A stretch of 15,548 nucleotides of DNA from a virus (taxonomy: Duplodnaviria > Heunggongvirae > Uroviricota > Caudoviricetes): IMG/VR virus record IMGVR_UViG_2636416166_000011. One strand, 5' to 3'. Positions 1 through 15,548 of this stretch are shown here, piece after piece. The stretch's first letter is position 1. The number at the start of each line of letters is the position of its first letter. The notes under the pieces are model-generated. The model had not been told where the DNA came from. It ran no database searches and saw nothing but the letters and a program-made list of their open reading frames with translations. A program made the position numbers and the translations under genes.

Positions 1-303
1 CTCCGGACGTAAATCACCATCCTTTGGTGCATTCAGAAACGCGTTCAGTGTCCCCGGTGCATCAGTCGGTGCCACATCAATATCCCCGACACGGGTTGGC
101 TGCCAGCCGTTACAGTGAAGCGCAACCTCGTAATACCCCGGCTCAGCCTCAATCACATAAGCACCGTTATTGTCCGTCACGCAAGTGGCAACAACGTGTG
201 CCACAACGGTCGGACTGGTTCTTCTGGCCCGCAGTTCAATCGCACAATTTACGACAGGTTTACCCGCCCCATCTTTCAGTACACCTGAAATCTTTACTGC
301 CAT
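1..303 (-). CDS. stf: Side tail fibre protein Stf, N-terminal 101 codons (partial; continues beyond window start)
   Basis: Minus-strand ATG at 303..301; translation MAVKISGVLKDGAGKPVVNCAIELRARR... matches my recollection of the lambda Stf N-terminus (MAVKISGVLKDG.GKPV.NC). Lies immediately downstream of lom as in lambda. Open to the window edge. Confidence 0.75.
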   Translation of the reverse strand, partial: MAVKISGVLKDGAGKPVVNCAIELRARRTSPTVVAHVVATCVTDNNGAYVIEAEPGYYEVALHCNGWQPTRVGDIDVAPTDAPGTLNAFLNAPKDGDLRPE

Positions 304-313
304 ATTCACCCCA

Positions 314-340
314 CAAAAAGCCCGCCTGAACCAGCGGGCT
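314..340 (-). terminator. Rho-independent terminator downstream of lom
   Basis: Minus strand reads AGCCCGC-TGGTTCAG-GCGGGCT followed by TTTTTGTGGGG: 7-bp GC-rich stem (plus 319..325 / 334..340) with T-run (plus A-run 314..318). Sits 27 nt after the lom stop. Confidence 0.6.
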
Positions 341-366
341 GTCATAACACTGTGTTACCTGGCTAA

Positions 367-966
367 TCAGAACTTATAACCGACACCCACGATGAAACCG
401 TCAGTGCGCCAGTCGCCACTGCCGGAACCTTCATAAGCAAGGTCAATGGCCACGGATTCGGTCGGGTTAAACTGCACGCCAGCCCCCCACGCCAGAGACG
501 TGTTGCTGTGGCGGTTGTCATCACTCCCGGTCAGCACATCGTGCGTTTTCCCCTTGTTGTCAGTTACGCGGAGATAATCCCCGGAGAAGGTCGACACACG
601 GCTGTAAGCCACGCCCGCCATCGCATACGCGCTGAACCATTCATTCACGCGCACAGACGGCCCCGCCATCACGCTGAACCAGCGGTTACGCACGGAATCC
701 TCATGCCAGCGGGTATCGCTGTAATGCGTTTTTTGCTCATCTTCAGCGTTGGCATAGCTGAATGACGTCACCAGCCCCAACGTGTCCGTAAACTCATAAC
801 GGTATTTCACGTTAATGCCCTTCAGGTCATCGCTGCCTGGCATATCAGTATGGGGCTGAAGATACCCGGCGCTCAGCGTGGACTGATGTTCAGACGCCCA
901 TGCAGGCGCACCGGATACAGCCAGACAGATGGCTGCGGACAAAATGGCTGCACAAACTTTACGCAT
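367..966 (-). CDS. lom: Lom outer-membrane protein (Ail/Lom family beta-barrel), 199 aa
   Basis: ORF 367..966, ATG start with GAGAGG Shine-Dalgarno upstream; N-terminal signal peptide (MRKVCAAILSAAICLAVSGAPAWA); C-terminal aromatic residue (…GVGYKF) typical of OMP barrels; position between J and stf as in lambda. Confidence 0.9.
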   Translation of the reverse strand: MRKVCAAILSAAICLAVSGAPAWASEHQSTLSAGYLQPHTDMPGSDDLKGINVKYRYEFTDTLGLVTSFSYANAEDEQKTHYSDTRWHEDSVRNRWFSVMAGPSVRVNEWFSAYAMAGVAYSRVSTFSGDYLRVTDNKGKTHDVLTGSDDNRHSNTSLAWGAGVQFNPTESVAIDLAYEGSGSGDWRTDGFIVGVGYKF

Positions 967-990
967 AATTACCTCTCGCTTTTCTGCAAT

Positions 991-1014
991 AAAAAAGGCA
1001 CCATTTCTGGTGCC
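991..1014 (-). terminator. Rho-independent terminator between J and lom
   Basis: Minus strand GGCACCA-GAAA-TGGTGCC followed by TTTTTTATTG (plus stem 997..1003 / 1008..1014, A-run 991..996). Starts 20 nt after the J stop. Confidence 0.6.
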
Positions 1015-1033
1015 CGTATCTGGGTTATAAAAT

Positions 1034-4000
1034 TCAGCTAATCGTGATGCCTGCAGTGGCTTTCTTCATCACAACAACCAGCAAATCGCTGATACTTGCT
1101 GTGGGATACCAGCCATTTACCAGCCATGCCGATACAGAAAACTCCAGCGTCATGTGACCGTGACCGGCAGGCATATCAATAACACCCGTATATATCAGCG
1201 TATTATCCAGGGTCGTTCGGTTATAAATTTCAGCACCGTTTTTCTTCACTATCAGGCTGCATGACGAATAAATATTGTTATTCTTCCGCTCATGTTTAGC
1301 ACCGCGAAACGCCACCGCGGGAATAACAATTTGCCGATCAAACGGCTGATCGTCATAAACCCTGACGGTAATGGTCCCTGATGGCCACCTCTCCGGTGCC
1401 CGGGAGTCCCGTGGGAAAGGTTTGCCCACTGTTTTAACGAGATCGCCTTCAATCTGGTTCGCGGACAATTTTCCCAGAACCCGACAGTTCTTATTAATCG
1501 TGACGTTGTTGAGCGTCCCGGAGTTCGCGTTCACGTTACCGCTGATATCGGCATTTTTCGCCGTCAGCCGTCCGCCAGGTGTCAGGGAAAATGCCGGAGG
1601 ATTACCGCCGCTGGTAATGGTCGGAGCCGTCAGGCGTTTCAGGAACACGTCGTTCATGAATATCTGATCGCCCTGACCAACAAACATCGGCTTTGTGTTG
1701 CCATTCGCAGGATTAATCATCGCAATCCTGTCTGCCGCCAGCAGCACCTGACTCTGCATTCCTGCTGGCGTATTCTCAATACCGGCACCGATACCCGCAA
1801 TATAAAGGCGTCCGTCCTTCATCTGTTGCAGCTTCACAGCCCACATGCTGTTCAGGTTATTATTTGTATCAACCTGAACTTTCTGTATCTGCTGGATTGC
1901 AGCACTCTGATTTTCCAGTTTTTTATTGACGGTTTGCGTGATTTCATTGCTGACATTCGTAATGGACGTCCTGATTTCAGTCAGGTCCGGCGCAAGCTGA
2001 CCGTTATCAATCTGCGTCCACAACTCCTTGCCGAGATGCGTGTTATTGATCAACCCTTTATAAAAACTCAGATAACCTTCCGCATCATCGCTCGCCCGAC
2101 CGACGGCCTCCACAAATGCCGATTTGCCAACGGTGTTCACACTGCGAACGTAAAAATAATAATCATGGCCCGGCCTGATATTGATACTGGCGGCTATCCA
2201 GTACAGCGCCGTGCCAAGATAGCGGGCGCTGGTTTCAACCTGCCTGATATCCGCAATCCGCTTTTCCGAAAACCAGAACTCAAACTGCACCGTCGGGTCG
2301 TATACAGCCAGTTTCGGGACCGCCGTTATCTGAAAATACCCCGGTATCAGTTCAATAGTGACGGCGCTGCCGGTGCGGCAATCCGGAACGATACCGACGC
2401 CGGATCGCCCTGCTGCCCCCGGGCATTTACCGCCCGGACTGTCAGACTGTAATTCCCCAGCGCCAGCTGCCTGAAGCGGTATGTGGTTTCCGTCGTCCTG
2501 GCTGTGCTGACCAGCCGCTCACTGCCGTCATCCGCTGCCACGGTCAGGCGAAGCAGGAAGCTCACACCCTTCACCACCTTCGGCGTGTCCCATCGCGCCA
2601 GCACCTGATATTCCCCGCTGTCTGCGGTGACTTCGGCGGTCAGATGCTGCACCGCTGGCGGCGTGACACCATTCACCGTGCCGCGCCGGTCACCGTCAAA
2701 GTGTGCCCCGTTATCCACGATGGCCTCTTTTTCCGGCACATGCTGCACGGCGGTGATGGCATACGTGCCGTCGTCGTTCTCACGGATACTCACGCAGCGG
2801 AACAGGCGCTGGCGCAGCGTCGGCAGCTTCAGCCCCCACACGCTGTATTCTGCAACGCCGTCAGGAACCCGGCTCACTTTCACCTTCACGCCGTCGGTGA
2901 CGGACTGAACCTCCACGCTGACCGGATTGCCATTTCCGTCAACCAGGCTTATCAGCGTGGTACAGGAGGACGGCAGCGTGATTTCACGGTCGAGCGTCAG
3001 CGTCCGGGTCTGGCTGTTCACCGCCAGTACGCGACCACCGGTGCTGATACCGGCATAATCATCATCGCAGATTTCAATGACATCACCCGGTACATGGCGA
3101 AGCCCTTCTGCGCCGACGCTGAAGTCCACGGTCTGCGTTTCCAGCAGTTCCGTTTTAATCAGCCACAGCCCGGCGCGGTGCGCCTGTCCCCGGCTGGTAC
3201 AGCCAAAGGCATCCATCTTCGTGACGTTACGACCGTAACGGAGAATGGCCTGCGCGTCCTCCACAAGCTCTGTCGCCGTCTCATGACCGTTGTCCGGATC
3301 AATCCAGTTCACCTCAACGACATTATGGCGGTCCTTCAGGGCGCTGAAGCTGTAGCGGAACGGCGCGCCATCATCCGGCATCACCACATTACTGCGGTTA
3401 TAGGTCCACACTTTATCCGACGGTCGGTCCTGCACGAACGTCAGCGTCTGCCCGTTCCATACCGGCATACAGCGCATCGCCGAGCAGAAATCACTGAGAA
3501 CATCCCACGCCTTACGCTGTGTGGTCAGGTAAGCGTTACAGGTGATGCGCGGCTCCGTGCCGCCAAATCCGTCCGGCACTGACTGGTCGCAGTACTGGCC
3601 GATGACATACAGCGCCCATTTGTCCACATCTGCCGCACCAAGACGTTTCCCCATGCCGTAGCGCGGATGAGTGAGCATGTCCCACCGACACCAGGCCATG
3701 TTGTTGCTGTATGCTGGCTTAAGCGTTCCGTCCCAGATACCGCTGTATTGCCGCGTCTGCGGGTTATAGTTCGACGGCACCTGCAGAATGCGCCCGCGAA
3801 GATGATAATTGCGACTCACCTGCTGGTTACCGAACTGCTCTGAATCCACCTGCACGCCGACCAGCGCCGTGTTCGGGTAGCACTGTTTCACATCGATGAT
3901 TTCGGTGTATGACGACCAGAGCGTTTTGTTCTGCAGCTGGTCTGTGGTGCTGTCCGGCGTCATCCTGCGCATCCGGATATTAAACGGGCGCGGCGGCAGG

Positions 4001-4512
4001 TTACCCACCACCACCGAGGCCAGATACTGCGAAGTGGTTTTGCCCTTAATGGTGATGTCTTTTTCCGTCACCCAGCCACCGTTACGCTGTATCTGAACCA
4101 GCAGGCGGACTTCCGACGGATTCCGGTCCCCCTTTGAGGTGTTTTCCACCAGTGCCTGCACACCGAAGGTCAGGCGCAGACGATCAATGTTTGCCGACGT
4201 GATGGTCCGGGTGATCGGCGTGTCGTATTTCACTTCCGTACCCAGCACAGTCTCTGAGCCGGAAGATTCAACCCCCTCCGGCGGTGTCTGCTCCTGCTCG
4301 CCGGCGCGGAACACCACCGTAACACCGGAAAAGTTTGTCTTCCCCTCGCTGTCCAGGACTGGCGTACCGTTCAGCAGCACGCTTTTTAATCCATCCACCG
4401 GACCGTCAACCGGCCCTTCGCTGATGGCATCAATCACACTCAGCAACTGCGTGGATTTCAGGTTGTCCTTCGCTTCGCGCGGGGTATGCCCCTTACTGCT
4501 GCCTTTACCCAT
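1034..4512 (-). pseudogene. J: Tail tip host-specificity protein J (central fibre), reading frame broken near 2356..2361
   Basis: Two ORFs in different frames: 2347..4512 (721 aa, MGKGSSKGHTPREAKDN... ends ...[13 protein letters not shown]) and a second frame open from upstream of 2400 to 1034 (…[33 protein letters not shown]… to …[10 protein letters not shown]). Lambda J as I recall it reads ...[19 protein letters not shown]..., so the two frames join with an apparent 1-nt deletion in minus-strand TCAC-TATTGAA. Combined length about 1159 codons versus 1132 in lambda. Confidence 0.85.
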
Positions 4513-4533
4513 TCCTCACGCTCCATAAACGAC

Positions 4534-4554
4534 AAAACCGCCCGCAGGCGGTTT
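4534..4554 (-). terminator. Candidate stem-loop (weak terminator/attenuator) in the I-J intergenic region
   Basis: Minus strand AAACCGCC-TGCG-GGCGGTTT followed by TGTCGTTT; 6-bp GC stem (plus 4537..4542 / 4547..4552). T-run is interrupted, so termination efficiency is doubtful. Confidence 0.3.
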
Positions 4555-4572
4555 CACATGAAACATTTTGCA

Positions 4573-5214
4573 TCAGCGACCAATCACCACAACCTGACCA
4601 CCATCCCCTTCGTCTGCCGTGCTGATCTCCTGAGATACCACCCGCGACCCCACGCGCATTTCACCGTACAGAACAGGCAGAACATTGCCCTGGGCAACCA
4701 TGTTATCCAGTGAGGAGAAACAGGTGTTCTGTTTGCCGTTATCCGTTGTCTGTGTACGGGGAGTTCTGGCTTTCGGTGCCAGCATCTGTGCAACACCGCC
4801 AAGCGTCATACTGGCACCGAGAGAAAACAGCAGATTACTCGCCATAATTCCTACCCCCGGCATCCATATAGCAACCGCCATAACAGCTGCCCCCAGCACC
4901 GCCTGAAACACACCGCCACTTTTAGCTCCCACCAGACGCGGTACTATGTGGATCACTGCACCATTTGCCAGCGGCTCATTAAGACGGGCAGACAATTCGG
5001 TTTCACCTGCATCACGCCCGGCAATGCGCACCTGATACCAGCCGTCACTCAGTTTCTGACGAAACGCCGGGAGCTGTGTGGCCAGTGCGCGGATGGCTTC
5101 AGCCCCCGTTTTCACACGAAGGTCGATGCGGCGGCCAAATCGTTGCAAATCCCCGTAAAGGCAGATGCGTGCCATTCCCGGTGACGCCAGAGGGAGTGTG
5201 TGCGTCGCTGCCAT
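4573..5214 (-). CDS. I: Tail tip assembly protein I, 213 aa
   Basis: Translation MAATHTLPLASPGMARICLYGDLQRFGRRIDLRVKTGAEAIRALATQLPAFRQKLSDGWYQVRIAGRD... and C-terminus ...VLYGEMRVGSRVVSQEISTADEGDGGQVVVIGR match lambda gpI as I recall it; central hydrophobic segment. Confidence 0.85.
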   Translation of the reverse strand: MAATHTLPLASPGMARICLYGDLQRFGRRIDLRVKTGAEAIRALATQLPAFRQKLSDGWYQVRIAGRDAGETELSARLNEPLANGAVIHIVPRLVGAKSGGVFQAVLGAAVMAVAIWMPGVGIMASNLLFSLGASMTLGGVAQMLAPKARTPRTQTTDNGKQNTCFSSLDNMVAQGNVLPVLYGEMRVGSRVVSQEISTADEGDGGQVVVIGR

Positions 5215-5855
5215 TTGTCGGTATACCTCTCTCGTTTACTCAGTTGTTCAGGAATATGGTGCAGCAGCTCACCGTCGCCGCAGTAAATGGCGGCATGATT
5301 CGGCACCGATGAACCAAAACAGCACAGCAGCACATCGCCCGGTTGTGCTGATGACAACGGCACCTGATACAGCCCTGTGGCCTCCAGATTATCCAGATAG
5401 AGATTCTGACCGTGACGCCACCAGTCATCCCCGCGATGAAAATCCGGCATCTCAATCCCCGCCAGATGATAAGCATCCCGGAACAGCGTGTAACAGTCCG
5501 TCACCCCGTGCTCAAAGCGCCGCCCGGTGAGATGCGGCACACAGCGGAACTTGTGAATCGCCCCCCGGCAGACCAGCCACCACGGCAAATCACTCTGCAC
5601 CTGCAGCCGCCGGTCAGCCTCACTCAGCCAGGGCAGACCACCGGGATGACTGTGGACCAGTGCCACAATCTCCCCCTGCATCTCTGCCCGCAGCCAGTCT
5701 TCCGGTGCGATACGAAAATACGCCTCCGGCTCTGCAGAAATATTCACACAAGGGATATACCGCTCCCCCTCCGGCGTTCTCACCACGAAGCCACACGACT
5801 CCGCTGGCGCACATCGCCGGGCGTGCGCCAGAATCGCTGATTCTGTCTGTGTCAT
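5112..5855 (-). CDS. K: Tail tip assembly protein K (MPN/JAMM plus NlpC/P60-like domains), 247 aa
   Basis: The six-frame ORF 5112..6119 is over-extended; the real start is the ATG at 5855 (MTQTESAILAHARRCAPAESCGFVV...), 4 nt after the L stop. Contains HSHPGG (JAMM-like) and Cys/His/His residues (VTDCY, NHAAIY, LLHH) of an NlpC/P60-type fold. Overlaps I by 103 nt. Confidence 0.8.
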   Translation of the reverse strand: MTQTESAILAHARRCAPAESCGFVVRTPEGERYIPCVNISAEPEAYFRIAPEDWLRAEMQGEIVALVHSHPGGLPWLSEADRRLQVQSDLPWWLVCRGAIHKFRCVPHLTGRRFEHGVTDCYTLFRDAYHLAGIEMPDFHRGDDWWRHGQNLYLDNLEATGLYQVPLSSAQPGDVLLCCFGSSVPNHAAIYCGDGELLHHIPEQLSKRERYTDKWQRRTHSLWRHREWHASAFTGICNDLAAASTFV

Positions 5856-5859
5856 GGAT

Positions 5860-6559
5860 TTACTGAGAAAGTTTATTGATGGAAAGGAAACCGCCGAAAT
5901 TACCGGTATTGTTGCGCAACTCACACCCGCGCATACACTTGCTGCATTTGTCCTTCCGGATATCCGTCGTTGGTTTGTCGAACTCGTCAGCCACTGCCCT
6001 GCCCGTGTAACCACACTCATCAGAACGGTAGGTCCACATACAGGTATTCGCCAGCATGATACGCCCCGGGAAAACCGCGCCATCCGTCTCCGTTGGTGTG
6101 GCCAGCACAAAAGAGGCACTGACCGCGCTCAGTTCGCTGCACTGCTCGATGCGCCAGCGGCTGATCACCTCCTGCTCCGGATCGGCGTCACTGTTTCCGT
6201 TGACGAAGTTCACCGCATCCAGAAAACGGGCGTAAACCTTACGCCGGACCACCGTTCCGCCGACCAGACTCTGCAGATCTTCCGCCATCCCGGCGACCAT
6301 ACCGTACAGGTTAGAAACCGTCAGCGTGGGGCGCGTACTGGTGCCTTTGCCATTCAGTTCAAAACCACTCCCCCTGAATGGGATACGGCTGATACTGTCG
6401 CCCCTGCCAGGTGACCGGCTCACCTTTTTCGTTCTGCTCATTACAGAAAAAATAACGTTCTCCACCGACCTCTGTCAGGTCGATTTCCCAGAGCACCACG
6501 CTGGCCGACTGCTCCGCACGGGTGCATTCATTCAGTGTTTCCTGCCGGATATCCTGCAT
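5860..6559 (-). pseudogene. L: Tail tip protein L, reading frame broken at a C5/G5 homopolymer (6370..6374)
   Basis: N-terminal ORF 6359..6559 (MQDIRQETLNECTRAEQSASVVLWEIDLTEVGGERYFFCNEQNEKGEPVTWQGRQYQPYPIQGEWF*) and second frame down to 5860 (…GSGFELNGKGTSTRPTLTVSNLYGM…FGGFLSINKLSQ*). Removing one G from minus-strand CAGGGGGAG gives ...YPIQGSGFELNGKG..., the lambda gpL sequence as I recall it. ATGA overlap with the M stop at 6559. Confidence 0.85.
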
Positions 6560-9800: not shown

Positions 9801-9929
9801 CATACGGGCAGAAGACCGTTCTGCATCACCGGCTGCACCATTCAGAAGGTTTTTGATACGGGGAATTTCATTTTTAAACTCTGCCGCATCAATCCCCAAA
9901 TCAATGACCAGGTTGGCTATCTGGTCCAT
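6888..9929 (-). CDS. H: Tail tape measure protein H, about 1013 aa
   Basis: Long ORF with a coiled-coil-rich, Q/R/E/A-rich central region; N-terminus MDQIANLVIDLGIDAAEF and C-terminus ...NNDGTNGQIGPAALKVVYDLGKKAAADFMQQQARDGGRLSGAYR resemble lambda gpH ends. Start chosen at ATG 9929 preceded by GGAGG (9940..9944); the ORF track begins at an upstream TTG at 9959, which is possible but less likely. Confidence 0.85.
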   Translation of the reverse strand: MDQIANLVIDLGIDAAEFKNEIPRIKNLLNGAAGDAERSSARMQRFMERQTQAARQTMHAASSAATAASAHAQTVEKNARAHERMAREVEQTRLRVDALNQKMREEQAQARALAEAQDKAAAAFYRQIDSVKQAGAGLQELQRIQQQIRQARNSGGVGQQDYLALISEITAKTRALTQAEEQATRQKAAFIRQLKEQATRQNLSSSELLRARAAQLGVSSAAEVYIRKMERAGKATHSLGLKSAAARRELGVLISQMARGNFGALRGSGITLANRAGWTGALMSPKGMMTGGVIGGLVAAVLGLGKAWHDGRKEGEEFNRQLALTGHYAGVTVGQLWKLSRAISGNGITQHAAAGALAQVVGSGAFHGNDIGMVAKAAAQMERSVGQSVSDTINQFKRLKDDPVNAAKALDNALHFLTATQLEQIRVLGEQGRSSDAARIAMSALAEETGKRTSDIDNNLNALGSTLQTLSDWWKQFWDAAMNIGREDSLDAQIDALQEKIQRAKKYPWTNASTQVEYDQQRLNDLQEKKRRKDLQDAKAQAERNYQEQQKRRNAENAALNRMNETEAARHQREIARINAMQYADQAVRDAAIQRENERYEKAIKKNTRATRNDEATRLLLQYSQQQAQVEGQIAAARQSAGIATERMTEAHKQLLALQQRISDLDGKKLTADEKSVLARKNELIQALTLLDVKQQELQKQTALNDLRKKTVQLTSQLADKERALREQHNLDIATAGMGDKQRQRYQAQLRIRQEYRQQLQQLENDSRQKGTYGTEDYRRAEEVLKGSLKRQLNENKRYWQELEVAQGDWKNGAMRAFQNFTADADNAVGTAEQMFTVAFSSAGNALATFCTTGKLNFKSFTSSLLSDMARIMAQMAMMQAVKGVGSLFGFTTNADGGVYQSADLSRYSGTVVNRPTFFAFAKGAGVMGEAGPKAILPLRRGADGKLGVVADTGGSGMVMFAPQYNIGINNDGTNGQIGPAALKVVYDLGKKAAADFMQQQARDGGRLSGAYR

Positions 9930-10250
9930 AACGCACACCTCCGGAAATACCTTCCCCAAGATGCATCAGTTCTTCGTCCGTTCGCTCCGGTATCCCGTTC
10001 TCTTCCGGTAAAAGGCTGAAATCAGCCACCGCAGCATCACTGCTGCCGGACACCATTCTCACGATCAATGCCTTCAGCGAGGCAAACTGCGCATCCATCC
10101 ACACATCACTGAAGCTCTGCATCCGGAAATAATCGCCCCCTCACCAAGCTCAGTGGCCGACATTTCCGACAGCATCCGCCGCCAGTCTGCCCGCCGGAAC
10201 TCCCGGGCAAGCCGCATGACAAACTGCATTTCCCGCGTCAGGACTTTTCC
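9901..10250 (-). pseudogene. T: Tail assembly chaperone T region (expressed as G-T fusion by -1 frameshift); the T frame itself is interrupted at a C5/G5 run (10136..10140)
   Basis: The -1 frame relative to G is open from 10262 to a stop at 10074 (…AGKVLTREMQFVMRLAREFRRADWRRMLSEMSATELGEG…). A third frame is open from 10140 to 9901 (GGDYFRMQSFSDVWMDAQFASLKALIVRM…GPDSQPGH*), ending 29 nt inside H. Adding one G to the minus-strand G5 run would fuse the two into one T-length ORF of about 120 codons. Confidence 0.6.
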
Positions 10251-10627
10251 GGCGTCAGCGCCTCATGATCATCATCCCCGGCATTCTCAATGGTCCCCAT
10301 ACCGCTCAGCGACAGAACCCTCTCCGCCCCCGCGCCCAGCGCATCATACGACCATGTTGTCATAATGGATGCGCAAAGCGTCTCAACATCCTGAGACTGC
10401 TCAGCATTCCACAGTGAGCGGGAAACCAGCCAGGCATTGATATCCATTCCCATACGCAGAAAAGCAATCTGTCGTTCAGCCTCCGGCAGTTCTCCCTCCT
10501 GTGCATCAAACTTTGCCGTTCGCTGCTGAACAAACGTCAGATATTCAATTCTCTGCAGCCCGGACAGCTCACTGAGCACCACGGACTGTTTTTCATAATT
10601 AAACGTATCCTGTTTCAGAAACATCAT
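10238..10627 (-). CDS. G: Tail assembly chaperone G, about 129 aa
   Basis: ORF 10238..10642 begins at a TTG; more likely starts are the tandem ATGs at 10627/10624 (MMFLKQDTFNYEKQSVVLSELSGLQRIEYL...) with GGAG 6 nt upstream. Acidic C-terminus (...ENAGDDDHEALTPEKS). Position between V and T/H. Confidence 0.8.
   Translation of the reverse strand: MMFLKQDTFNYEKQSVVLSELSGLQRIEYLTFVQQRTAKFDAQEGELPEAERQIAFLRMGMDINAWLVSRSLWNAEQSQDVETLCASIMTTWSYDALGAGAERVLSLSGMGTIENAGDDDHEALTPEKS
10244..10250 (-). other. Putative -1 programmed ribosomal frameshift site for G-T fusion (GGAAAAG)
   Basis: Minus-strand heptamer G-GAA-AAG in the G frame, 2 codons before the G stop. The -1 frame opens just upstream at 10262, so the shift must occur in the last 8 codons of G. 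Position matches lambda, where the slip site as I recall is G-GGA-AAG. Confidence 0.4.
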
Positions 10628-11835: not shown

Positions 11836-12419
11836 CCCAAATGTATCCTCAGTTGCTGTTTCAGGGCATACCCCAGCTGTTTCGGCATTTCCGCGGCAAT
11901 GATGCGATCGCGGGCATCCTCAAATGCCTGTGTCAGCGGTCCGGCCAGCGGAATTTTCACAACCTCCACGGGCAGACGATTTTTTCTGGGCCGCCCCTTA
12001 CTGTCCTTTCCTGTTTCAAAACACGCTTCAGGAAGACGCCTGAGAACATGCCAGCGACCGTTCGCCAGCTGCTGGATAAACGCACCACGAAAAAAGTATT
12101 TCCCCACCTTCAGTCCGTCACCGGCACGCCGGCATGTTGTGCCAAGCTTAATGGCGGGCAGATTGCCCCGGTTAACACGGATACGGGCATACATTTTTCC
12201 TGCCGGACTGGCTTTAAATACCCGGACGCGCTGACGCACCAGTTTCAGGGGGCCCCCCTTCACCTGGTTATCTCCCGCAACGGTATTCCTGGCGACCTGC
12301 CGGGTGGCAACCGAGACAACTTTTGCAGCAACCCGGTTTACTGCCCATGCGCTGGCCTGCGGCACCATACGGGTATCAAGACTGTTCAGATTGCGGATGG
12401 CATTCTCAAGCCCCCTCAT
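11832..12419 (-). CDS. Z: Tail completion protein Z, 195 aa
   Basis: MRGLENAIRNLNSLDTRMVPQASAWAVNRVAAKVVSVATRQVAR...GAFIQQLANGRWHV...VVKIPLAGPLTQAF...LGYALKQQLR resembles lambda gpZ (MKGLERAIQNLNSL...GAFIQQLKNGRWHV...) as I recall. Confidence 0.85.
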   Translation of the reverse strand: MRGLENAIRNLNSLDTRMVPQASAWAVNRVAAKVVSVATRQVARNTVAGDNQVKGGPLKLVRQRVRVFKASPAGKMYARIRVNRGNLPAIKLGTTCRRAGDGLKVGKYFFRGAFIQQLANGRWHVLRRLPEACFETGKDSKGRPRKNRLPVEVVKIPLAGPLTQAFEDARDRIIAAEMPKQLGYALKQQLRIHLG

Positions 12420-12564: not shown

Positions 12565-12589
12565 GTAAGCGTAAACTGACCGCCGTATG
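12565..12589. repeat. IS66-family left terminal inverted repeat
   Basis: GTAAGCGTAAACTGACCGCCGTATG, matches the right end in inverted orientation. Confidence 0.7.
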
Positions 12590-12650
12590 TAGCCATTAAG
12601 CCTGTATTGGTAACGTAGGTGCCCACCTTTTCAACTAGTGGACACCTGTT

Positions 12651-13070
12651 ATGGAACAGAAAGCATTATCTGCAGAACCCCGCAGATCATTTTCAAATGA
12701 GTTTAAACTTCAAATGGTTAAACTGGCTTCACAACCAGGAGCCTCTGTTGCCCGTATTGCCCGGGAACACGATATCAATGATAACCTGCTGTTTAAATGG
12801 CTCAGGCTCTGGCAGAACGAAGGGCGCATATCGCGGCGTCTTCCGGTAACAACCTCTTCTGACACTGGCGTTGAATTATTACCTGTGGAGATAACGCCGG
12901 ATGAGCCGAAAGAACCTGTGGCTGGTCTTACTCCGTCTTTATCTACTCAGACTACAGTTAGTGCCAGCTCCTGCAAGGTGGAGTTCCGTCACGGTAACAT
13001 GACGCTGGAAAATCCTTCACCAGAGCTGCTCACAGTGTTGATCCGTGAACTGACCGGGAGGGGACGATGA
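12651..13070 (+). CDS. IS66-family accessory protein TnpA (orf1), 139 aa
   Basis: First ORF of the element (MEQKALSAEPRRSFSNEFKLQMVKLASQPGASVARIAREHDINDNLLFKWL..., helix-turn-helix-like N-terminus); stop overlaps the orfB start (ATGA). Confidence 0.8.
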   Translation: MEQKALSAEPRRSFSNEFKLQMVKLASQPGASVARIAREHDINDNLLFKWLRLWQNEGRISRRLPVTTSSDTGVELLPVEITPDEPKEPVAGLTPSLSTQTTVSASSCKVEFRHGNMTLENPSPELLTVLIRELTGRGR

Positions 13071-13417
13071 TCTCACTCCCGTCAGGCACCCGCATCTGGC
13101 TCGTTGCTGGGATAACCGATATGCGTAAGTCTTTCAACGGGCTGGGTGAACAGGTACAGCATGTGCTGAATGATAATCCCTTCTCCGGTCACCTGTTCAT
13201 CTTCCGTGGCCGACGGGGTGACATGATTAAAATCCTGTGGGCTGATGCTGATGGTCTGTGCCTGTTCACCAGACGCCTGGAGGAAGGCCAGTTTATCTGG
13301 CCTGCTGTGCGTGACGGCAAGGTATCCATTACCCGCTCGCAACTGGCAATGCTCCTCGATAAGCTGGACTGGCGTCAGCCAAAAACATCCCGCCTTAATG
13401 CACTGACAATGTTGTAA
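13067..13417 (+). CDS. IS66-family TnpB (orf2), 116 aa
   Basis: MISLPSGTRIWLVAGITDMRKSFNGLGEQVQHVLNDNPFSGHLFIFRGRRGDMIKILWADADGLCLF... is the characteristic IS66 Orf2 sequence; translationally coupled to orfA. Confidence 0.85.
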   Translation: MISLPSGTRIWLVAGITDMRKSFNGLGEQVQHVLNDNPFSGHLFIFRGRRGDMIKILWADADGLCLFTRRLEEGQFIWPAVRDGKVSITRSQLAMLLDKLDWRQPKTSRLNALTML

Positions 13418-13447
13418 AAATGTCATGGCCGGATTATAAAAACGGCC

Positions 13448-15040
13448 ATGAATCAAAAATACCTCATTCGCATTGCAGAACTGGAATGCCAGCTCCGTCA
13501 GAAAGACCAGCAACTGAGTCTGGTTGAAGAGACGGAGGCCTTCCTGCGCTCTGCACTGGCCCGCGCCGAAGAAAAGATCGAAGAAGATGAACGGGAAATA
13601 GAACATCTGCGGGCTCAGATAGAAAAACTGCGCCGGATGCTGTTCGGTACCCGTTCTGAAAAACTGCGTCGTGAAGTTGAACAGGCTGAGGCCCTGCTGA
13701 AACAACGCGAACAGGACAGTGATCGTTACAGTGGGCGGGAAGACGATCCGCAGGTTCCCCGCCAGTTGCGACAGTCTCGTCATCGTCGCCCGTTACCGGA
13801 GCATCTGCCCCGCGAAATAAATCGCCTGGAGCCAGAAGAAAGCTGTTGCCCGGAGTGTGGCGGTGAGCTGGATTATCTGGGGGAAGTCAGCGCAGAACAA
13901 CTGGAACTGGTGAGCAGCGCTCTGAAAGTGATCCGCACAGAACGGGTAAAAAAAGCCTGTACAAAATGTGACTGCATCGTTGAAGCACCGGCACCATCCC
14001 GTCCGATAGAGCGTGGTATCGCGGGCCCGGGGTTACTTGCCCGCGTGTTAACGGGAAAATACTGCGAACACCTGCCACTGTATCGTCAGAGTGAAATTTT
14101 TGCCCGTCAGGGTGTCGAACTGAGCCGTGCATTACTCTCCAACTTGGTTGACGCGTGCTGCCAGTTAATGACGCCGCTGAATGATGCTCTGTACCGTTAT
14201 GTAATGAACAGCCGCAAAGTTCACACTGATGACACACCAGTAAAAGTGCTGGCACCGGGCAGGAAGAAGGCGAAAACAGGATATATCTGGACGTATGTCC
14301 GGGATGACAGGAATGCCGGTTCGCCAGAGCCTCCGGCGGTCTGGTTCGCCTACTCACCGGACCATCAGGGTAAACATCCGGAGCAGCACCTTAGTCCCTT
14401 CCGGGGTATCCTGCAGGCAGATGCGTTTAATGGTTACGATCGGCTGTTCAGTGCCGAACGAGAAGGCGGCGCGTTGACGGAAGCAGGATGCTGGGCTCAT
14501 GCGCGGCGCAAAGTCCACGATGTATATATCAGTACCAAAAGCGCGACAGCGGAAGAAGCCCTGAAACTAATCGGTGAGCTGTACGCCATCGAGCACGAAA
14601 TACGCGGGTTGCCGGTGTCTGAACGCCTGGCGGTCAGGCAAATGCAGAGTAAACCGCTACTGACTTCCCTGTATAAGCTGATGCAGGAGAAAGAACACAC
14701 GTTATCGAAAAAATGCCGTCTGAGAGATGCGTTCCGGTATATCAGGAAGCACTGGGTTGCGTTGTGCAACTTCAGTGATGATGGTCTGGCTGAGGCGGAT
14801 AATAATGCCGCGGAAAGAGCGCTTCGTGCAGTCTGTCTCGGAAAGAAAAACTTTATGTTCTTCGGCAGCGATCACGGTGGAGAGCGTGGTGCGCTACTGT
14901 ACGGGCTGATCGGCACCTGCCGACTGAACGGTATCGATCCGGAAGCGTATCTGCGCTATATCCTGAGCGTACTGCCGGAATGGCCTTCCAACCGTGTTGA
15001 CGAACTCCTGCCATGGAACGTAGCACTCACCAATAAATAA
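13448..15040 (+). CDS. IS66-family transposase TnpC (orf3), 530 aa
   Basis: N-terminal coiled-coil/leucine-zipper region, zinc-ribbon CPECGGEL...CTKCDC, then DDE-type catalytic core (…HTDDTPVKVL…YIWTYV…, …DAFNGYD…, …CWAHARRKV…); ends just before the right inverted repeat. Confidence 0.85.
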   Translation: MNQKYLIRIAELECQLRQKDQQLSLVEETEAFLRSALARAEEKIEEDEREIEHLRAQIEKLRRMLFGTRSEKLRREVEQAEALLKQREQDSDRYSGREDDPQVPRQLRQSRHRRPLPEHLPREINRLEPEESCCPECGGELDYLGEVSAEQLELVSSALKVIRTERVKKACTKCDCIVEAPAPSRPIERGIAGPGLLARVLTGKYCEHLPLYRQSEIFARQGVELSRALLSNLVDACCQLMTPLNDALYRYVMNSRKVHTDDTPVKVLAPGRKKAKTGYIWTYVRDDRNAGSPEPPAVWFAYSPDHQGKHPEQHLSPFRGILQADAFNGYDRLFSAEREGGALTEAGCWAHARRKVHDVYISTKSATAEEALKLIGELYAIEHEIRGLPVSERLAVRQMQSKPLLTSLYKLMQEKEHTLSKKCRLRDAFRYIRKHWVALCNFSDDGLAEADNNAAERALRAVCLGKKNFMFFGSDHGGERGALLYGLIGTCRLNGIDPEAYLRYILSVLPEWPSNRVDELLPWNVALTNK

Positions 15041-15045
15041 GCGTC

Positions 15046-15308
<263 letters not shown>

Positions 15309-15548
15309 CCCCTTCTCATTCAGGCCACGGATAATGGTGGTGTACAGACCATCCTGCGTGCTCAGTGACGGCGGGAATGAAGTTTCAATCGGACGAACAA
15401 CGACCACGCCAGAATTCAGATCGGTGTGCTCATTCAGGAGATCGATTTGCCAGTCAACAAAGGCGCGCAGGAAGTTACCTTCACCAAACTGAATGATACG
15501 TTCTGGATACTGTGCACCGGGAATATCGCGACGATTTAGTGTTTTCAC
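15309..15548 (-). pseudogene. uxaB: Altronate oxidoreductase (tagaturonate reductase) UxaB, N-terminal 80 codons only; 3' part removed at the IS3-family element end
   Basis: Minus-strand translation from the window edge (GTG at 15548..15546) [80 protein letters not shown] matches my recollection of the E. coli UxaB N-terminus (mannitol-dehydrogenase family Rossmann fold). The stop codon ending the ORF at 15306..15308 is the terminal TGA of the IS element, not a native stop; the full protein is about 480 aa. Confidence 0.7.

Follow-up and report, generated by a model that had tools for sequence, protein, structure and literature searches.

A frameshift in gene J of a Shigella prophage remnant that very probably marks the edge of a short patch of paralogous sequence

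The host-specificity gene J in IMG/VR virus record IMGVR_UViG_2636416166_000011 is split between two reading frames, which raises the question of how the break came about and whether it is a genuine mutation of the phage gene. A preliminary description of the stretch of DNA analysed here (15,548 nt in full, hereafter the window), made from its letters, had placed the split at 2347-2365 as an apparent 1-nt deletion outside any homopolymer, and had considered it more likely to be genuine than the frameshifts in the tail genes T and L. Translation of the open reading frames, together with gpJ Pfam domains on both pieces, confirmed that J is in two frames at this place: on the minus strand, a 721-aa frame (4512-2347) gives way to a -1 frame that continues to the C-terminus at 1034. 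The first of these was authentic J sequence up to Pro717, followed by SLLN and a TGA at 2349-2347, with APAAPSLLN as its end. The -1 frame was open from 2518 and J-homologous from about 2361, and the two frames overlapped by 172 nt (2518-2347).

Both pieces belong to a recognizable gpJ. Pfam matches on the N-terminal piece comprised FNIII-A_GpJ (residues 86-207), Phage-tail_3 (330-498), and Ig_J (611-714), and those on the C-terminal piece Ig_J_second (716-817), Phage_Tail_Tip, and Ig_GpJ_C; their E-values ranged from 1e-27 to 1e-43, and thus the matches are not due to chance. Summed, the domains of the two fragments equal the full gpJ set of the intact orthologue. When repaired, J matched the lambda gpJ structure 8iyk_J over residues 1-836 (E=0) and the C-terminal gpJ constructs 9wca and 8xcj over residues 867-1159. 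The gene is positioned between I and lom, where a member of the gpJ family is expected as one continuous ORF of about 1130-1160 codons; such an ORF was absent from the window copy, which is therefore either a pseudogene of the lambda gpJ family or a family member with an error in its sequence. The break at residue 717 falls in the linker between Ig_J and Ig_J_second, and the reading that the sequence, as written, splits the tail-tip hub part of J from the fibre and receptor-binding part is supported. The constructs in PDB 9wca ('gpJ 713') and 8xcj start at about residue 713, the same domain boundary.

Exact-protein look-up identified the source of the window as contig AMJU01000140.1 (21,227 bp) of draft GCA_000815585.1. 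The sequence is what remains of a Shigella prophage, of the S. flexneri 6 / S. boydii type. Gene calls and Pfam recovered a minus-strand lambda-type tail module consisting of Z, U, V, G, T, H, M, L, K, I, J, lom (367-966), and the start of stf (Table 1). The IS66-family element adjoining it is complete and has taken the place of the prophage's entire head, packaging, and early region. On the host side (15071-15548), an IS911 fragment and a mannitol-dehydrogenase fragment were located beside IS66.

Table 1. Features of the window that bear on the interruption of J, with coordinates given as positions in the window.
Feature	Position	Strand	Description
IS66-family element (tnpA, tnpB, tnpC)	12565..15070	+	replaces all upstream of tail gene Z
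G and T	9901..10624	-	T frameshifted, missing T near 10139 (GGTGAG-GGGGCG); common to all orthologues
L	5860..6559	-	broken into products of 66 aa and 146 aa, with one G too many in a G-run near 6374; common to all orthologues
J, N-terminal frame	2347..4512	-	721 aa; Pfam FNIII-A_GpJ, Phage-tail_3, Ig_J; lambda gpJ 8iyk, E=0
J, patch 1	3866..3981	-	at most 116 nt paralogue-type; private synonymous changes 3958 (T185) and 3910 (S201)
J, patch 2	2504..2565	-	at most 62 nt paralogue-type; private synonymous C>T at 2530 (D661)
J, patch 3	2363..2420	-	at most 58 nt lambda-type; private synonymous G>C at 2377 (A712); 3' end coincides with the frameshift
J, missing T	between 2362 and 2363	-	codon 717; orthologues GCGCCTGTCAC, window GCGCCGTCAC
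J, C-terminal part (-1 frame)	1034..2361	-	Pfam Ig_J_second, Phage_Tail_Tip, Ig_GpJ_C

Searching with the 66-aa product of the frameshifted L, we found the same chromosomal locus in many assemblies, with the conserved order GGDEF gene, mannitol-dehydrogenase fragment, IS66, tail genes, lom, stf, and ipaH. Nine orthologous loci were 99.8-99.95% identical to the window, and the IS66 junction was identical in those that reach it (L005-L010). An ipaH-type effector gene with LRR_TTSS and NEL domains was present after the remnant (19448-20201 in L005 and 18177-19301 in L006) and at 18377-20022 in a further locus, L001; this neighbour may be the reason for the persistence of the remnant. L001 (NZ_CP065615.1, 296181-323660) comes from FDAARGOS_943, a strain filed as E. 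coli, and held an apparently intact version of the prophage beside ipaH, in which portal, capsid, G, T, L, and J were all whole and the ipaH gene was annotated as frameshifted. In this genome 28 places matched the IS66 query, and it looks like a Shigella/EIEC-like strain.

Nearly every J homologue that we examined was one base longer than the window at the break. The whole gene measured 3480 nt, versus 3479 nt in the window, in 28 of 30 listed E. coli genomes (the other two were shorter); the segment around the break measured 147 versus 146 nt in all 40 listed E. coli matches; and the J region measured 402 versus 401 nt in 29 of 30 listed phage records. Alignment to the nine orthologues and to FDAARGOS_943, the closest complete genome (J 99.5% identical), pinned the missing base as the T in GCGCC[T]GTCACTATTGAA: all of these read GCGCCTGTCACTATTGAA (A P V T I E), while the window reads GCGCCGTCACTATTGAA. 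This base lies within the range that had been given before, and 5 nt upstream of the junction TCAC-TATTGAA at which the gap had been drawn; the earlier placement results from taking lambda-type J (GCGCCGTCACAGATTGAG) as the reference. By either placement, orthologue-based or lambda-based, the break is outside a homopolymer, as had been stated.

The frameshifts in T and L, which the preliminary description had suspected to be homopolymer errors, recurred in each of the nine orthologous loci, one of them on the complete chromosome CP026811.1 of S. flexneri serotype 6 strain 64-5500 (PMC9455713). By exact-protein look-up, the frameshifted T product was on 478 contigs and the L product on 64, with the former in S. 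boydii Sb227 and the latter in S. flexneri CCH060 and CDC 796-83. Being common to all orthologues, the T and L lesions are genuine, ancestral, and inherited. The J lesion had the opposite distribution. In six of the nine loci J was continuous over 1159 codons, and in six the J base was the sole gap relative to the window. J had 1149 codons in the remaining three (L004, L005, and L008, from S. flexneri 6 strain 64-5500 and two other assemblies), with its 3' end cut by an IS3-family insertion at about 15497-16710, which is independent damage to the same gene. The intact 1159-aa orthologue occurred as an exact protein on 90 contigs, whereas the exact 721-aa and 418-aa products of the broken gene were found on AMJU01000140.1 only. 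Likewise, 16- to 28-mers spanning the J junction had no occurrence in the 80 J loci of our panel (below), the nine orthologues, IMG/VR, GTDB representative genomes, or JGI metagenomes, while an intact 23-mer used as a positive control was found on 87 viral contigs and in two representative genomes. An inherited lesion should recur in independent assemblies; this one was confined to a single contig, was in none of the related strains' loci, and is private to its assembly, such that the earlier ranking of the J lesion above those in T and L was backwards.

What the window alone carries at this locus provided the clue to the origin of the break. Relative to all covering orthologues, it was private at eight positions (15258, 12925, 7130, 3958, 3910, 2530, 2377, and the deletion at 2362), five of which were in J: the deletion and four substitutions, all synonymous. 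We compared these with a panel of 80 paralogous J loci from IMG/VR, taking the majority state from 77 paralogues. The orthologue consensus and the paralogue majority differed at 179 J sites, and the window was orthologue-type at 175 of them; the four at which it was paralogue-type were exactly its private substitutions, and the deletion was paralogue-type too. By our own arithmetic, random substitutions would give this result with a probability of about (179/3479 x 1/3)^4, roughly 1e-7. Exact copies of patches 1, 2, and 3 were present in 28, 8, and 17 paralogous loci, respectively, out of 80, and in none of the nine orthologues, and twelve paralogues held all three core patches. Thus, all five private J changes had the properties of a paralogue-derived tract, in which every change is a paralogue state and the tract itself can be found verbatim in paralogues.

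The deletion was linked to the synonymous G>C located 15 nt upstream, and the way in which the two allele types differ at this point accounts for its form. Lambda-type J reads ATTGCCGCACCGGCAGCGCC-GTC(G/A)C(A/G)GATTGAG, and the resident type reads ATTGCGGCACCGGCAGCGCCTGTCAC-TATTGAA (alignment A1). The codons for APVTIE in the resident allele and APSQ/RIE in the lambda-type allele are equal in length and shifted against each other by one base (GCGCC-T-GTCAC-TATTGA versus GCGCC-GTCAC-AG-ATTGA, respectively). In the same alignment the window follows the lambda type before GTC and the orthologue type after it. In 100-nt steps, identity of the paralogues to the window was 94-95% as far as 2363 and fell to 82% in 2362-2263; the C-terminal 440 residues of J are of non-lambda type, with DNA about 76-90% identical to most paralogues. 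Among E. coli genomes with any J match, the median number of matching places was three, so donor copies are likely to have been present.

Collectively, these observations make it very probable that a short patch (16 to 58 nt, within 2363-2420) of paralogous lambda-type J, rather than of the resident allele, ends at the frameshift. The sequence would match a paralogue as far as GTC(AC) and then switch to the resident allele, emerging one base short, and J would stop after four wrong codons past the switch. The switch would lie at the Ig_J / Ig_J_second linker, where similarity among J paralogues drops from about 94% to 82%; at a drop of this kind a heteroduplex would be expected to terminate, and a read alignment likewise. 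The donor would be a J copy carrying ATTGCCGCACCGGCAGCGCCGTC in the genome of the strain. We also considered a conversion tract of greater length: none of 5426 complete E. coli genomes matched the 238 nt preceding the lesion perfectly (best 97.9%). Over these 238 nt the orthologues were closer than any E. coli match, and hence the patch must be short.

Such a patch could have formed in silico or in the cell. Our favoured reading, to which we would give about even chances, is an origin in assembly, whereby reads of other J copies were folded into the consensus of a multi-copy region. Paralogue reads would then support the deletion and the G>C, and would be clipped or outvoted in the divergent part that holds the compensating extra base. 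A de Bruijn assembler cannot create a junction k-mer that is found in no read, so this route needs a mapping, consensus, or gap-closing step. If it is true, the real J of the strain is whole, like that of its relatives. Somewhat short of an even chance, in our judgment, is real ectopic gene conversion between the resident J and the lambda-type J of another prophage, with the heteroduplex repaired in patches. The tract, ending at the similarity drop, would have left J one base short, and the outcome would be a strain-private pseudogenization without selection. If this is true, the recipient J was inactivated without importing a defect, by a tract that ended between two mutually compensating allele indels, and the window would be a concrete case of a pseudogene arising from recombination between intact paralogues at a module boundary.

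Several findings count for the artefact, and most of them also count against conversion. The lesion is known from one draft assembly only, and conversion needs three separate short patches within 1.6 kb of J, with dozens of unconverted discriminating sites between them. Outside J, and unrelated to it, the private change at 15258 flips the IS911 remnant to the canonical multi-copy IS911 allele (its 81-mer was perfect in 394 E. coli records); we lean toward taking this additional paralogue-type flip as a sign of in-silico origin. Contig AMJU01000140.1 runs through the multi-copy IS66, while de novo short-read contigs from other projects (L011 and L012) stop there. Moreover, a sibling draft, AMJZ01 (L013), had the same kind of change: in a survey of 27 close J relatives, in which private alleles were classed as paralogue-type by a 5% rule, three of its four private J alleles were paralogue-type and all four were present in at least one paralogue. 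By comparison, five J lineage changes in other orthologous loci (of which 4272 is shared with the window) were in no paralogue. The same draft also had a local anomaly in Z. At about 1250-1300 of AMJZ01000045.1 (window 11883-11896), a 25-nt direct tandem duplication, with GAGGATGCCCGCGATCGCATCATTG present twice, replaces 13 nt and shortens Z to 182 aa, which looks like a misassembly of the gap-closing kind. Judged by their neighbouring accession numbers only, AMJU, AMJZ, and AMKG would come from one project.

Other findings stand against the artefact. Conversion draws on the same paralogue-state evidence as the preferred patch reading, and a single event with patchy repair would be enough, given that one donor type has all three patches. 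The element was already dead, so the lesion would not have been selected against. Paralogue-type private changes were also found outside the batch of AMJ- and AMK-prefixed accessions (five of five in L153, two of three in L019/L120, and one of four in the complete genome FDAARGOS_943), which indicates that real conversion between J copies occurs and lowers our confidence in the artefact. The five in L153 (IMGVR_UViG_2693429508_000014) lie at J 2410-3441, in the C-terminal half, and the J of this record is either a real mosaic or another case of cross-talk. Furthermore, AMKG01 (L009), despite its neighbouring accession, was without private changes. Finally, two of the eight private changes of the window were not paralogue states, namely 7130 (in H, tape-measure E944K) and 12925 (in IS66 tnpA). 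These two ordinary substitutions are either real strain divergence, as conversion would favour, or plain errors, and the strain may be somewhat diverged.

Readings that do without a paralogue fared far worse. An independent spontaneous 1-nt deletion, with the nearby private substitutions unrelated to it, was the view taken in the preliminary description and would suit a non-homopolymer site in a decaying prophage; we regard it as improbable, since the deletion restores lambda-type sequence exactly, as does the G>C, and the four private substitutions, synonymous throughout, match the paralogue majority, for which we calculated a chance of about 1e-7. A simple point deletion is thus contradicted. 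The same linkage and paralogue-state arguments, and again the non-homopolymer site, make a random base-calling error in reads, with no paralogues involved, very improbable, even though the lesion is in a single draft and other drafts of the locus (L006 and L007) show scattered 1-nt gaps. That J is naturally two-framed, by programmed -1 ribosomal frameshifting or as two genes, would fit the -1 direction of the downstream frame, as in the G-T tail chaperone pair, and a break at a domain linker, yet can practically be dismissed: J was continuous and one base longer in all nine orthologues, all listed E. coli records, and 29 of the 30 listed phage records, homologues with a single uninterrupted frame at this place number in the thousands, the 172-nt overlap of the frames contained no slippery heptamer of the form X XXY YYZ, and the only in-frame downstream start was a GTG at 2290 that had no Shine-Dalgarno sequence, nor was a promoter found.

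No homologue was naturally split at the position of the break. The only split J that we found was that of PhiR63_1 (PV340573.1; L015, 3043-3071), where it is annotated as two overlapping CDS and broken about 200 nt upstream of the lesion in the window. There, a 2-nt gap lies beside a G-run (GGGG--GAGC versus GGGGGTGAGC in phage 21), which probably reflects an error made in sequencing a viable phage.

The frame break in J is confirmed but ordinary rather than novel, being located in a defective Shigella prophage remnant and private to one draft. It has no functional consequence on either account of the patch, in vivo or in silico, because the remnant consists of tail genes without head genes and had inherited frameshifts in T and L. 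The earlier statement that the lesion would abolish a functional tail fibre is therefore moot. Biologically its weight is small: J was the last long readable tail gene in a remnant unable to make particles, and the J of close relatives is whole. The lessons are of another kind. In a multi-copy prophage gene, a frameshift cannot be trusted on the ground that it lies outside a homopolymer; comparison of orthologous loci inverted the ranking made from the letters, and it was the homopolymer-associated T and L lesions that proved genuine. Additionally, a frameshift can form at the edge of a paralogous patch if the alleles are locally out of register, which should be checked before pseudogenes are called in draft genomes.

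With respect to known systems, the programmed -1 frameshift of lambda G/GT resembles the J of the window in its two overlapping frames, the second at -1, but the window J is without a slippery site, its arrangement is not conserved, and its homologues are continuous. Short-tract ectopic conversion and mis-assigned paralogue reads both share with the window the clustered private changes, the donor states, the bounds in shared sequence, and an end at a similarity drop; they differ in that the window case is known from an assembled consensus, for which each process is a candidate. Lambda gpJ itself (PDB 8IYK, 8XCG, and others) has the same full domain set, aligns at E=0, and occupies the same place between I and lom, while the window J is in two frames and has a second Ig-like domain, fibre, and receptor-binding domain of non-lambda type in its C-terminal part. 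The ipaH-carrying remnants of S. boydii Sb227 and S. flexneri serotype 6 64-5500 differ from the window in that their J is continuous at this point (1159 aa, or with the 3' end cut by the IS3-family element), and are otherwise alike in locus, in the T and L frameshifts, and in the IS66 truncation, at 99.9% identity.
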